This document shows, piece by piece, positions 3,157 through 19,631 of a DNA stretch of 64,000 nt. Source of the DNA: Candidatus Nanohaloarchaea archaeon (GTDB lineage Archaea > Nanohalarchaeota > Nanosalinia > Nanosalinales > Nanosalinaceae). The stretch covers positions 1-64,000 of the forward strand of contig JBDGRK010000003.1 in assembly GCA_042218075.1 (NCBI GenBank). Reading direction: 5' to 3'. Both the position numbers and the translations under genes were made by a program. Below the pieces are notes generated by a model that saw only the letters and a list, made by a program, of their open reading frames with translations, did no database searches and was not told the origin of the DNA. Numbering within the stretch: position 1 is the stretch's first letter; each line of letters begins with the position of its first letter.

Positions 3157-3909
3157 ATGCCTTCTGAAGAAGAAATTTCCCGAATCCGAAAATATGCATC
3201 CGAAGGCTACTCTGTCAATTACATAATGAAAATTTTGGATATTCCCAAATCAACAGTCTACTATCACTTAAAAAAAGAGGTAGGTCAGAAGCAGAAAGAG
3301 AATTCCATCGAAATACCTGAGGAATCGGAAATTATTGGCGAAATATGTGGGGTATTTGCCGGAGATGGAAACTACTATTATGATGAGAAGAAATGCGAAT
3401 ACAGGATCAAAATAATCTTGAACTAAAAAGATAAGTACTGGAAAGAACTTTCCGAATTATTGGAGAAAAACTTGAAAAAACCTACACATGTCCGCCAATA
3501 TGGTAGTAAAAAGATTCTGGATTATTCGTCAAAAGCCCTCTATGAAGAACTGAACTCTCAACTTCAATGGAAGGATGGAAACAAATCATCTACTGTAAAA
3601 CTTTTGGACAAAAATTACGATAGAGATTTCAAAATTGGATTTTTGAGAGGGTTGCTAGATACAGATGGGTACTTGGCTCCAGAATGTAGAAAATATACTT
3701 TAACAAGTATAAGCAGAGATTTGATTTTTGATTCCGTGGGAATTCTAGATGAATTAGGAATAGAAAATCGTAAGAGAGAATATGAAGACGAGAGAAATAA
3801 TCGAGAGAAACTCTATTTTCTTGAAGTTTCAGGAAACAGTGCTGTTGATTTGAACGAGCAAATAGAGCCTAGAAATCCTAAAAGAAAATGTAAACTTGCG
3901 AGATTATAA
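3157..3909 (+). pseudogene. Free-standing HTH + LAGLIDADG homing endonuclease with one in-frame stop
   Basis: N-terminal HTH (LDIPKSTVYYHL); motifs ICGVFAGDG and FLRGLLDTDG; ORFs 3157-3426 and 3460-3909 share a frame, separated only by TAA at 3424-3426. Confidence 0.85.
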
Positions 3910-15437: not shown

Positions 15438-16166
15438 ATGGTAGAATATCATTACATTACAGCCCTTTGTCCCGATGAGAGATTCGAATTTAATGTACCT
15501 GAAGAGTTTGAAATGGATTATTTTGTTCTTTTTAGTCAGGAGGGAATGGAAGTCAATCCAGACGATTTTGCAGAGGAAAGAATGGAGGAACTGAATTATG
15601 AACCTGAAACCTGCGTGAGAGAGATTGATCTCTATAATAACCTAAATCCAATGATTGCTTCAATCGAATGGATGATTGATCATGGAGAAGATAGATATTT
15701 CTTTGATCTATCAAACGCAGAGCATCCTGCAGCGGTCGGAATGGCACATGCAACTCATGCAATGAGGAGAGGAAAGCTATTAGATGCAATGCCTGGTGAA
15801 GATGGAAGCCAGATGTATGAGATAGAAGGTTTTCCGCTCGAGATGAAAATTCCTGTTTCGGAGCAGTCGCTGAATCTTTTGGAGGCTTACAGAAAAGAGG
15901 ATGGAAGAGGTGTGACTAAAGCATTAGCCGATATTGGTATAATCGATGAAGAACCTCCAGAAAAAGCAGAGGGGAAGAGGGAGAGAAAACAAATTCAATC
16001 AAATTATGAGAACTATAAGAGGAAGTTGGTGGAAGAAGGCTTTCTTGCCAGAAAAGGCAGAAGCAATATAGTAATTACAGAAAAGGGTGAAATAATTGCC
16101 AGACTTTTGGATGACGTGGGGGATGTAGAACGTCTCTTGGAAGCTTCTGGGATCAGTTCTATTTGA
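15438..16166 (+). CDS. Putative regulator: Rossmann/CARF-like N-terminus plus C-terminal winged HTH
   Basis: YFFDLSNAEHPAAVG resembles the Csa3/DUF6293 motif; KLVEEGFL...ITEKG wing. Confidence 0.5.
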   Translation: MVEYHYITALCPDERFEFNVPEEFEMDYFVLFSQEGMEVNPDDFAEERMEELNYEPETCVREIDLYNNLNPMIASIEWMIDHGEDRYFFDLSNAEHPAAVGMAHATHAMRRGKLLDAMPGEDGSQMYEIEGFPLEMKIPVSEQSLNLLEAYRKEDGRGVTKALADIGIIDEEPPEKAEGKRERKQIQSNYENYKRKLVEEGFLARKGRSNIVITEKGEIIARLLDDVGDVERLLEASGISSI

Positions 16167-16405: not shown

Positions 16406-19141
16406 TCACCTTATCCTGTATCTCAGCAGTGCAGCGATTCCTCCCATGTTCATCAGTCTCTGGCCTTCCTCGTGATCTGTTGAGATGATCTCCAGCTCGG
16501 AACCCATATCTTCAGCCTTCTCGGCCATCACGTCGACGATATCCTGGATCTCCTCAAGATTCATCTCTTCCCCACATTCATCGCACTCCACGCTCTCCTC
16601 AATCTCTGGTTGTTCCTCGAAAACTTCTTTCTCGTGGTCGTTCGGACACCTGTAAATGGCCTCGAAGTGATCAAAGTCCTCCGATATGAGAACAGTATCC
16701 ACCGCTCCCATCTCCATCGCCTTCATAACCGGTTCAAGACCGTACTCAGACTTCCCGTTCTCCTGCTTCAGGTTGTCAAAGAAATTCTTCATCAGCTGTT
16801 TCTCTTTAACAGCCTGCGAATCTTCGATCGCGTCCTCAGCCTTGTCTACAAGAAGGCTAAAACCCGCTTCTCCAGATGTATCAAGTGACTTGACATCGAT
16901 CACTTTCTCCTGAAGTTCCTGTTGAAGGTAGTCGTCTTCAACCAGCTTATCCTTGACGAATCCAGGCCCTCCGACAATTATTCCCAGCAGCTTGTCCTCC
17001 CTAGCTTTGTCAAGAAAAGCCTTCTTCGCGTTCTCCGCGATATCTCCGAGGAATGTCTTCAGCATCTCCTCTCTCAACCGGGCGAATCTCTGGGCCGAGT
17101 TGTGTACTACCAAATTGTTAGCTATGAAGTTCCCGGCCTCCACCGATATATCGACAACCTCTCTCTCCTCGAGCTTCTCTATAGATTTTATCTTGGTCGG
17201 CAGGAGAGCATTTTTGTGAATATCCTTCATTTCTTCCCTCAATTCGCCGGAGGATTCCTCTAATATGTTCCTCTGGAATGCAGTTTTGCTTATTTTCCTG
17301 TTTCCCTGCAGGTAGGTGTTTGCCTCCCAGTAATCTGAAATTTGAGATCCTTTCTGCTCGATGATTTCCCTTACCTTTTCCCCTCCCTCAAGAACCTGTC
17401 TATTGTTGCACCTGTCTTTCTCCAGGTCGCAGATTTTCTCCAGTTCTTCTTTTTTTCTATCACTGCTGAAACCTATCTTTTGCCTGAATTTTTGGAGTGA
17501 TTTAGCGTCGGTGATATCTACTGTATATCTTTTGTTGTCTGTATAGGGGTTTTCTGAATTATCGTATTCTCTGAGAGAGGAAATTATGCCCTGCTGCAGC
17601 AAAGCCGACTGTAGCTGCTGCATCAAAGTCTTATTATTTGCAGAAATTCCTACTCTGCTCCTGCTTTCCGAGCAGTGGCCTTCCGCGTCATAGAATCCTC
17701 CTATGAAGCTTTTCAGTATTTCTTCATCCGATCTGAGAATCTTTGCCGGTATTTCAGTATTTCTCGAGTCATTGATCTCCGGGAATTCGTTTTTCACGAA
17801 CTCTACCAGTGGTTTACCGAAGGCCCTGAGCCTGTAATAATTCTTGTCTTCTCTGAATTTGATACTTGTATCGCAGTCAAACTTTCTCTCAATAATGTTG
17901 CTGTAAAACTCCGCCAACTCTTTATCTCCTTCATGGAAGTTCAGCCTTTCTGGATCAAAACTGCCGTCTCCAGCGAAGTAACCCAGTATCCGTGACAGTT
18001 CTTCATCCAGTTTCTTCGGGAGCCTGTATTTCCGTGATCTGCAGTCGTACTGTGCAAATTCTAGAAAATTCAATCCAAGTTCCCTGCAGATCTTCTCAAG
18101 CAGTTCCCTTTTAACCGCTCTTTCACCCAGTTCTATCTTTGAAATCGCTGTCTGCGTGGCTCCAACTGCCTCTCCAAGCTCCCTCTGGGAAAAGCCATAA
18201 GATTTTCTTGCCTCCCTCAATTTTTCTCTCCCTTTCTCCGATATCAGAAAGGAGTTGCAGTACCTTTCCGGCGCAAGTAAACAGTCTTTTGAGCCGTTAT
18301 CCAGTTCACTGGGGAATATCAGGCTTTCTCCAACTTCCAGGTCTTCCACAGATTTTTTGGATAGTTCAGAGGTGAAGACCTCATGATCCTCCGACGCTAT
18401 CAGCTTTTTCTCTGGAAACTTTGTCTCTATCATGTGAACTTGCTTTTCCTCCCTCCACTTGTCCAGGACTTCGGAATCTCCTATCTCCATCGATTCCAGA
18501 TCCACTGACTTCACTGAATCTCCGACCTGAACCTCGCTGATTCTTTTCAGATTCCCGTCCGACATCTGGACCATTGTATCGGGATCAAGACACTGGCCCC
18601 CCGCCCGGGTCTTTCCCGGAACATTTGATTCCATGGTGTAAGCGGTCTTGATGCTGTTGCCCTGGAGGTAACCGATCGCTGCCTCGTTCTTGTCCGCCAC
18701 GATAAGACCGTATACGCGGTCGTCGACGATCATCTGCTTCAGGGGCTCCAGAACAAACTCCTTGTCGCACCTGTACCTCCTTGATTCGATAGGTTCCGGC
18801 GGAACTACTTCCCAGATCTCTATCTCCGGCCTTCCCTCTGTGTCCGATACGTTCCCGGAGAAGAATACCACACCGTTCTCCGGTGTCTCCTGTTCTTCCC
18901 GGACTTTCCTACCGATCTTACCGAGCGCATCCTGGACGTTTGTCCTGGTGTGCTTCGACTTGATGTTCTCAGCCTCGCTCTGCTCAGAGGTGATGAAGTC
19001 GGAAATCTTAGACATATCGTAGTCCGCTGGTATGTACAGGGATACGAGCTCGGTGTTCCTTCCCCTGATATCCTCCAGCTCCGAGATCAGCTTCTTCAGC
19101 TGGTACTTGTTCATAGAGTTCCCGTTGTTTTGCTCGGTCAT
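16406..19141 (-). CDS. prf1: Peptide chain release factor aRF1 containing an intein
   Basis: ELVSLYIP, NIKS, YRCD, GGQ|S, GGIAALLRY; exteins total 413 aa. Confidence 0.96.
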   Translation of the reverse strand: MTEQNNGNSMNKYQLKKLISELEDIRGRNTELVSLYIPADYDMSKISDFITSEQSEAENIKSKHTRTNVQDALGKIGRKVREEQETPENGVVFFSGNVSDTEGRPEIEIWEVVPPEPIESRRYRCDKEFVLEPLKQMIVDDRVYGLIVADKNEAAIGYLQGNSIKTAYTMESNVPGKTRAGGQCLDPDTMVQMSDGNLKRISEVQVGDSVKSVDLESMEIGDSEVLDKWREEKQVHMIETKFPEKKLIASEDHEVFTSELSKKSVEDLEVGESLIFPSELDNGSKDCLLAPERYCNSFLISEKGREKLREARKSYGFSQRELGEAVGATQTAISKIELGERAVKRELLEKICRELGLNFLEFAQYDCRSRKYRLPKKLDEELSRILGYFAGDGSFDPERLNFHEGDKELAEFYSNIIERKFDCDTSIKFREDKNYYRLRAFGKPLVEFVKNEFPEINDSRNTEIPAKILRSDEEILKSFIGGFYDAEGHCSESRSRVGISANNKTLMQQLQSALLQQGIISSLREYDNSENPYTDNKRYTVDITDAKSLQKFRQKIGFSSDRKKEELEKICDLEKDRCNNRQVLEGGEKVREIIEQKGSQISDYWEANTYLQGNRKISKTAFQRNILEESSGELREEMKDIHKNALLPTKIKSIEKLEEREVVDISVEAGNFIANNLVVHNSAQRFARLREEMLKTFLGDIAENAKKAFLDKAREDKLLGIIVGGPGFVKDKLVEDDYLQQELQEKVIDVKSLDTSGEAGFSLLVDKAEDAIEDSQAVKEKQLMKNFFDNLKQENGKSEYGLEPVMKAMEMGAVDTVLISEDFDHFEAIYRCPNDHEKEVFEEQPEIEESVECDECGEEMNLEEIQDIVDVMAEKAEDMGSELEIISTDHEEGQRLMNMGGIAALLRYRIR
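17099..18592 (-). mobile_element. Intein (498 aa) with XRE-HTH and LAGLIDADG endonuclease
   Basis: Starts CLDPDT, block B SEDH, motifs LGYFAGDG and IGGFYDAEG, ends VVHN followed by extein Ser. Confidence 0.95.
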
Positions 19142-19340: not shown

Positions 19341-19631
19341 ATGAAAATTTTTGAGGTCGAAGATATTTTTGGCAATATTATTGTTCTGACCAATGAAAGG
19401 TGGAATCATACCATAAGGCATAAGGTTCCCGGAATAGAGTCTCTAAAGAGATCACTGAGAAAACCGTATGAGGTCAGAAAGAGCAGATATGATGAATATG
19501 TTTTTCTTTATTATAGAAGGTTCTCCGGAAATTTTCTCAGCACTGTGGTTCAAAGTAAAGATGGATTTTTAATGACAGCCTACACAACTGATAAAATAAA
19601 GTAGGGTGAACTGGTATGGAAGCAGAAATGA
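19341..19631 (+). pseudogene. RelE/DUF4258-like toxin, probably truncated by TAG at 19602-19604
   Basis: LTNERWNH...LYYR...TAY pattern; reading through TAG gives a GELVWKQK tail overlapping the next gene. Confidence 0.55.

Follow-up and report, generated by a model that had tools for sequence, protein, structure and literature searches.

In this study, we analyzed a window of 64,000 nucleotides, the whole stretch of DNA from position 1 to 64,000 of the forward strand of contig JBDGRK010000003.1 (assembly GCA_042218075.1, Candidatus Nanohaloarchaea archaeon), in which the gene for the class-I release factor aRF1 is interrupted by an intein directly after the catalytic GGQ motif. We assign a rough probability of 0.8 to the explanation that this is a genuine class-1 homing intein located in the only aRF1 gene found, which splices itself out constitutively and is selfish rather than regulatory. 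An intein at the catalytic GGQ of a sole class-I release factor is apparently unpublished with respect to both host and site, and its mechanism seems to be an ordinary one. The genome from which the window originates is a metagenome-type assembly of 1,103,323 bases in 40 contigs, 92% complete and with 1.2% contamination.

Inteins concentrate in replication and repair proteins and are rare in core translation factors, and translation components hold few of them, according to the main text of Novikova et al. (2016; PMC4760082), in which the terms "release factor", "eRF1" and "aRF1" have 0 occurrences. Inteins of other translation factors (archaeal aIF2; 15 cases given there) also occupy a core translation factor, but a different one and at a different site. 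The inteins of Bodo saltans virus sit in its polymerases and not in its eRF1. No paper describing an intein at the GGQ|S site of aRF1 was found in literature searches that combined inteins with release factor, eRF1, aRF1 and DPANN topics, and database annotation names these proteins only as "LAGLIDADG family homing endonuclease" or "helix-turn-helix domain-containing protein". The aRF1 intein is abundant in public assemblies, yet apparently undescribed in print, so that the question raised in a preliminary description of this DNA, whether the site was already catalogued, receives a positive answer for public sequence data and a negative one for the papers found.

The aRF1 gene and its intein

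The aRF1 precursor is encoded in an open reading frame (ORF) that is uninterrupted over 911 codons in the window translation. Its features, including those of the intein, are as follows.

16406..19141, minus strand: gene for the aRF1 precursor, 911 codons followed by a stop codon at 16406-16408, TIGR03676 match
18593..19141, minus strand: N-extein, residues 1-183, with the catalytic GGQ at its C-terminal end; TIGR03676 positions 1-174
18956-18967: NIKS motif, residues 59-62 of the precursor
18755-18775: YxCxxxF motif, here YRCDKEF, residues 123-129 of the precursor
18593-18601: GGQ motif, residues 181-183 of the precursor
17099..18592, minus strand: intein of 498 amino acids (aa), Cys1 to His497-Asn498, from translation, Pfam, AlphaFold2 and Foldseek
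18263..18592, minus strand: N-terminal Hint lobe, residues 1-110 of the intein, beta strands 7-94 in the model; its block A is Cys1 and its block B is S67-x-x-H70 (18374-18394)
18056..18220, minus strand: XRE-type helix-turn-helix (HTH; Pfam HTH_3, PF01381), intein residues 125-179, E 2.4e-12, between Hint lobe and endonuclease
17393..18019, minus strand: LAGLIDADG homing-endonuclease domain, intein residues about 192-400, PF14528 in two stretches
17960-17989, minus strand: LAGLIDADG motif 1, ILGYFAGDGS, with catalytic D209
17678-17707, minus strand: LAGLIDADG motif 2, FIGGFYDAEG, with catalytic E304
17099..17215, minus strand: C-terminal Hint lobe, residues 460-498 of the intein, beta strands 463-497; contains block F (D481) and block G (H497-N498)
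16409..17098, minus strand: C-extein, residues 682-911, whose first residue is the +1 nucleophile Ser (SAQRFARLRE...); TIGR03676 positions 174-402

The identity of the host protein is supported by the NCBIfam equivalog TIGR03676 (429.7 bits, cut-off 234.7) and by the presence of NIKS, YxCxxxF and GGQ. Pfam recognized eRF1_1, eRF1_2 and eRF1_3 in the 911-aa precursor together with Intein_splicing, Hint, HTH_3 and LAGLIDADG_3. On the genome, TIGR03676 matched as two pieces (1-174 and 174-402) that abut at model position 174; therefore, the insert neither costs nor adds aRF1 residues. Removal of the 498-aa intein leaves a colinear aRF1 of 413 aa, which falls inside the range of 411-416 aa seen in most full-length intein-less nanohaloarchaeal aRF1 among the matches listed (120 of 189 at E <= 1e-40).

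The translation of 17099-18592 (minus strand) reads CLDPDT...NLVVHN, preceded by ...NVPGKTRAGGQ and followed by SAQRFARLRE. Pfam E-values were 2.3e-17 for Intein_splicing, 7e-12 for HTH_3 (precursor residues 308-362; 45.6 bits, gathering cut-off 23), and 3.3e-21 for LAGLIDADG_3, which matched in two stretches. We aligned 42 full-size inteins from this site, comprising the window intein, nine from other Nanohaloarchaeota and 32 from other DPANN archaea (Aenigmatarchaeota, Woesearchaeota, Nanoarchaeota, and unnamed DPANN metagenome-assembled genomes, MAGs). The Hint-domain residues C1, T57, P60, H70, D481, F489, H497 and N498 were invariant in 42/42, as were the endonuclease residues G208-D209-G210, A303-E304-G305 and K380. 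Block B reads S67-E-D-H70 in the window intein, and its position 67 is Ser in 33 of the 42 sequences and Thr in the other 9. Blocks A, B, F and G and the +1 nucleophile, here Ser, by which class-1 inteins are recognized, are all present.

The AlphaFold2 model of the intein, built from the alignment of the 42 inteins, had a predicted local distance difference test score (pLDDT) of 93.1 and a predicted template modelling score (pTM) of 0.89. In it, the two lobes at the N and C ends (7-94 and 463-497) are rich in beta strands, residues 119-183 form a bundle of five helices, and the endonuclease core is of the alpha/beta type. Foldseek matched this model best to bifunctional inteins, led by TliVMA (7qss; E 6.4e-24, TMt 0.75) and followed by 7qsu, PI-PkoII (2cw7) and PI-PfuI (1dq3), with PhoVMA (7qst) and PI-SceI among further matches; the endonuclease core matched I-DmoI and I-Tsp061I with TMt of 0.65-0.71. 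A profile search of the PDB likewise placed PI-PfuI on top (E 1.4e-35). As in the window intein, a Hint domain is interrupted by a two-motif LAGLIDADG endonuclease in TliVMA, PhoVMA, PI-PkoII and PI-PfuI (Foldseek E 6.4e-24 to 4.2e-16). However, these solved inteins reside in other hosts (V-ATPase A, DNA polymerase and ribonucleotide reductase), share 13-18% identity with the window intein, and have no XRE HTH match. In the profile search, positions about 116-190, which cover the HTH, matched only XRE-type regulators (C.BclI, HipB and 434 repressor) and zero solved inteins; therefore, the HTH, present in 38 of the 42 aligned inteins, is an additional module of the aRF1 intein family. By sequence and model, 17099..18592 is a class-1 intein of the canonical type that combines a Hint fold with a LAGLIDADG endonuclease and an inserted XRE-type HTH.

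These results bear out the anatomy given in the preliminary description, namely a full-size intein directly after GGQ at 17099..18592 with GGQ|S borders, which carries an XRE HTH as well as two LAGLIDADG motifs that are both intact, and a normal 413-aa aRF1 upon intein removal. Given that the genome is a metagenome-type assembly in 40 contigs, we also considered that the arrangement might be non-functional, either as an assembly chimera or as a dead insertion breaking aRF1. The contigs of a second, independent study contained the same allele, and two of them span the junction between intein and C-extein with zero differences, which makes an assembly artefact unlikely. Moreover, the 911-codon frame is unbroken, every splicing residue has been kept, and the same architecture occurs in 67 other database clusters. 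A chimera or a dead insertion is therefore extremely improbable.

Splicing, translation termination, and the question of a switch

From the conserved residues, we infer the following course of events. The 911-aa precursor would be made first, and in this form no intact GGQ loop could enter the peptidyl-transferase centre. Cys1 would then form a thioester at the Gln183-Cys184 bond, the N-extein would be taken over by the +1 Ser, and cyclisation of Asn498, aided by His497 and Asp481, would be followed by an O-to-N shift that re-forms the native GGQ-S peptide bond and yields the 413-aa aRF1. The HemK-related methyltransferase family methylates the glutamine of GGQ, and a member is encoded in the genome (128 bits, cut-off 87), which would then modify the mature protein. 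The freed intein would act as a site-specific DNA endonuclease, with DNA recognition probably extended by the HTH, cutting intein-less aRF1 genes at the conserved GGQ|S coding sequence, after which repair would copy the intein in, i.e., homing. At the salt level of the cytoplasm, splicing would most likely proceed efficiently and constitutively. The aRF1 intein is most likely a selfish homing element.

Whether termination depends on this splicing reaction rests on the number of aRF1 genes. A search of the contigs for TIGR03676 and eRF1-like proteins found no second aRF1 in the 92%-complete genome. Two other eRF1-like genes were present, and in neither did Pfam detect the module with which aRF1 reads stop codons. 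The first encodes Pelota, in which eRF1_1, eRF1_2 and eRF1_3 are present and GGQ is absent. The second encodes a VLRF1-type protein of 298 aa whose loop reads GGFSQ (PF18859, 52.9 bits; G000:C2:38111-39007, equivalent to L004:1372-2268 on the minus strand), for which Pfam gives only release-factor matches of the eRF1 domain-2 type, eRF1 domain 1 being absent, and the N-terminus of which is a charged coiled-coil-like region. This protein is probably a ribosome-rescue peptidyl-tRNA hydrolase and not a second aRF1. Since no second aRF1 was found, termination depends on aRF1 splicing, subject to the unassembled 8% of the genome. This agrees with the preliminary description, in which all termination was said to depend on splicing; the incompleteness of the genome, which leaves room for a second aRF1, counts against our interpretation.

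The same description proposed that splicing could respond to salt, redox or host contact, and thereby act as a global switch, such that mature aRF1 and all termination would be gated post-translationally. A strong salt or redox dependence within the range experienced by the cell would, if true, throttle all termination in a host-dependent nanohaloarchaeon. The aRF1 intein offers a simple system in which to ask if a salt-in halophile splices an essential translation factor conditionally. The lack of a second aRF1 among the contigs speaks for such gating, and conditional protein splicing is documented in other inteins, including a salt-dependent one of Halobacterium salinarum (Reitter et al., 2016, as cited in the review PMC10663303). 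Like the aRF1 intein, the conditional inteins of Pyrococcus horikoshii RadA and Halobacterium salinarum reside in essential proteins of extremophilic archaea. Unlike these, the aRF1 intein shows no conserved regulatory feature: across the 42 same-site inteins, we found none, such as a second Cys able to trap Cys1. Cys1 is the sole invariant cysteine, while the other eight are conserved in at most 28/42 (the best being C169), so that a conserved redox pair is lacking. With a pI of 5.2, the intein is acidic and probably needs high salt to fold, but all proteins of a salt-in halophile should depend on salt in this way, and such dependence alone makes no switch. In addition, about 50 of 63 related species, including 4/4 congeners, do without the intein. 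It seems, then, that a switch is quite improbable; the data neither support nor refute it.

The number of inteins in this organism also argues against a purpose-built regulator. In the 1.1-Mb genome, about 15 long reading frames together contained 37 matches to Intein_splicing and 38 to LAGLIDADG_3, and counting of the N-terminal matches indicated about 20 inteins, a very high density for a genome of this size. One frame of 2348 aa contains three inteins. Examples of intein matches in the genome (G000) are C2:28347-33254, C13:8780-12049, C14:30911-34276 and C36:136405-139263, with a further match in the window's contig at C23:100570-101646. Given about 20 inteins in the genome, the one in aRF1 resembles a selfish passenger among many others. 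Separately, a LAGLIDADG_3 match (45.9 bits) is located in the window at 3625-3864 on the plus strand, within a 160-aa open frame, and may represent a free-standing homing-endonuclease gene rather than an intein.

Distribution and mobility of the intein

A search for proteins of near-equal length returned 73 others (database clusters) from Nanohaloarchaeota, Aenigmatarchaeota, Woesearchaeota, Nanoarchaeota and Diapherotrites. Of these, 69 were aRF1 with an intein and four were inteins of other hosts. The junctions of the 69 read GGQ|C in 60, GGW|C in five, GGY|C in one and GGM|C in one, with two fragments; 67/73 carry an intein at this site of aRF1. The closest relatives are aRF1 inteins of other DPANN archaea, for example those from Candidatus Nanohalobium and Nanohaloarchaea MAGs (P0003, here L015, and P0006, here L012), which share host, site and the combination of Hint, HTH_3 and LAGLIDADG. 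Nanohaloarchaeota aRF1 inteins are of similar length (498-524 aa), and the window intein is 53-62% identical to its own nanohaloarchaeal family, versus 31-34% to the other nanohaloarchaeal family. The putative endonuclease target is one of the most conserved archaeal coding sequences, which may explain the spread of the intein across DPANN phyla.

Within Nanohaloarchaeota, 63 of 70 species genomes had an aRF1 match. The gene was clearly split at model position 174 in 10 species, probably split (halves on two contigs, or the C half only) in two, uninterrupted in 50, and could not be assigned in one. The intein was present in 0/4 congeners, and five genera (g1, g3, g13, g16 and g18) were polymorphic for it. 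Of 11 empty alleles that were fetched, 10 read GGQ|SAQRF and one GGQ|SQQRF, and around the site these 11 differed from occupied alleles by synonymous changes only. The check for empty alleles suggested in the preliminary description thus returned many of them, including all four congeners. In Aenigmatarchaeota, the exteins of a locus with the intein (L050) and one without (L103) were 92.9% identical.

This patchy distribution and the state of the endonuclease are what would be expected if the element were still mobile. We built an extein tree of 21 rows from the 10 complete intein-bearing genes, all of which were used, and from 11 of the 50 empty genes, which were picked by hand, partly as same-genus partners, and included the four congeners. 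On it, the presence of the intein required six changes, four of which were forced by strongly supported branches. On this tree with its hand-picked empty rows, 117/500 label shuffles needed as few changes as observed, and therefore intein presence is hardly clustered. The endonuclease was the best-conserved part of the intein, with 52% identity to the window intein versus 43% for the N-terminal Hint lobe within Nanohaloarchaeota, and 40% versus 30% outside of them. Additionally, near-equal intein and extein identities in two pairs, 78% and 80% for L012 and L015, and 72% and 74% for L011 and L014, suggest later transfer; the corresponding values for the window and L015 were 62% and 82%.

Several observations weigh against recent movement of the window copy. 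The choice of same-genus empty rows inflates the change count on the 21-row tree. Even the nearest intein shares no more than 62% identity with the window intein, the end branch of which is long (0.42). GC content at third codon positions (GC3) of the intein was 0.516, compared with 0.552 +/- 0.073 in 29 window ORFs, and thus gave no signal of recent import, the exteins being GC3-rich (0.75 and 0.61). No contig joints skipping the intein were found in three runs, as judged from contigs, which lose rare variants, and no empty allele from the same species was found in a set of 5.8 billion proteins, where the closest intein-less aRF1 was 77% identical over the C-extein. Divergence of inteins and exteins was correlated (r = 0.92), and their incongruence was marginal in the approximately unbiased (AU) test (p = 0.037), which set the extein data against the intein-tree clade of the window, L012, L015 and L010. 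Taken together, the distance to the nearest intein, GC3, the correlation and the marginal AU test mean that much of the data agrees with a long vertical inheritance accompanied by losses.

These points raise the alternative of a resident, immobile intein, which splices, has been inherited vertically for a long time, owes its patchiness to repeated precise losses, and has an endonuclease that is inactive or without a target. The long end branch and r = 0.92, the ameliorated GC3, the marginal AU test, and the lack of a same-species empty allele among the contigs of the three runs or in the protein set would all be consistent with residence. However, the endonuclease has its catalytic residues invariant in 42/42 and is the best-conserved domain. 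The presence/absence changes, of which the 21 close relatives show at least 4-6, the five polymorphic genera and the pairs with near-equal identity also speak against it. In the established view of the homing cycle, homing should be commoner than the precise loss of an intein. We therefore regard immobile residence as unlikely, although it is the most serious of the alternatives considered, and active homing of the window copy as somewhat more probable than not. For the aRF1 intein family as a whole, distribution and conservation fit a homing cycle that is still running. The suggestion in the preliminary description that the endonuclease may still be homing thus gains indirect support from the catalytic D, E and K (42/42), the conservation of the domain, the patchy distribution and the absence from congeners (0/4).

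The same site also houses mini-inteins of 135-141 aa, which lack the HTH, in other DPANN archaea (P0026, P0032, P0034 and P0039, with precursors of about 555 aa) and HTH-less inteins of 431 aa in Woesearchaeota, forms that would be expected as stages of a homing cycle. Other DPANN loci with small or HTH-less inteins at GG(Q/W/M)|S are L059, L077, L091, L092, L093 and L105, and L051, L073, L075, L078 and L087. Two records with a DPANN-type aRF1 intein bear titles from other groups, "uncultured Methanosarcinales archaeon" (L040) and "Candidatus Paceibacterota bacterium" (L051), and are probably mislabelled or contaminated bins.

GGW and GGM release factors, and the neighbourhood of the gene

The seven matches with a motif other than GGQ prompted us to fetch the best 80 loci (L026-L105) from species-representative genomes, 78 of which could be parsed. 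GGQ with an intein was found in 33, GGW without an intein in 24, GGW with an intein in eight, and GGM with an intein in 13, i.e., 32 GGW and 13 GGM loci (e.g., L062:1501-2715, L026:1501-4233 and L083:1501-4041). All GGW and GGM rows with a phylum in their title were Aenigmatarchaeota, while many were titled only "uncultured archaeon". For a tree of 71 exteins, the trait residue was masked, and 30 of the 80 loci were omitted (22 GGQ rows with a C-extein below 200 aa, most of them titled Woesearchaeota or Nanoarchaeota, and eight partial or unparsed ones). On this tree, GGM formed a single clade with a Shimodaira-Hasegawa-like approximate likelihood ratio test (SH-aLRT) support of 99. Another clade (SH-aLRT 99) comprised 32 rows; 30 of these were GGW, and the other two were long-branched GGQ rows nested among them.

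The GGW or GGM gene was the only full aRF1 in 4/4 genomes tested, in one case on a 1.1-Mb contig, and a bacterial-type release factor domain was found in 0/5 genomes (four GGW/GGM and one GGQ). These proteins keep NIKS and YxCxxxF. After splicing, many would read GGWSQ or GGMSQ, recalling the GGxSQ loop given for VLRF1 by Burroughs and Aravind (2019), but seven GGW rows have SAN or SAS instead. The HemK-related methyltransferase TIGR00537 was above its cut-off of 87 in 0/8 GGW, 0/4 GGM and 6/8 related GGQ genomes, counts that come from non-independent kin whose completeness is not given; a seventh related GGQ genome had 79 bits, below the cut-off. No paper on GGW or GGM aRF1, or on GGQ loss in Aenigmarchaeota or DPANN, was found in the literature. 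If the observation holds, it bears on the long-standing question of the role of the GGQ glutamine, and this by-product of our analysis may be more interesting than the window intein itself. A bolder idea is that long residence of the intein family at GGQ|S may have favoured the change of Gln to Trp or Met in Aenigmatarchaeota through selection on the -1 residue of the intein; like the salt or redox switch, we consider this very doubtful.

Finally, the aRF1 gene in the window is flanked on both sides by ORFs on the opposite strand, at 15438-16166 (plus strand, 242 aa) and 19341-19604 (plus strand, 87 aa). Pfam gave zero matches for either of them. Their DNA is AT-rich, with a GC content of 0.29-0.43 versus 0.49-0.56 in the aRF1 exteins, and they might represent small mobile or orphan genes.

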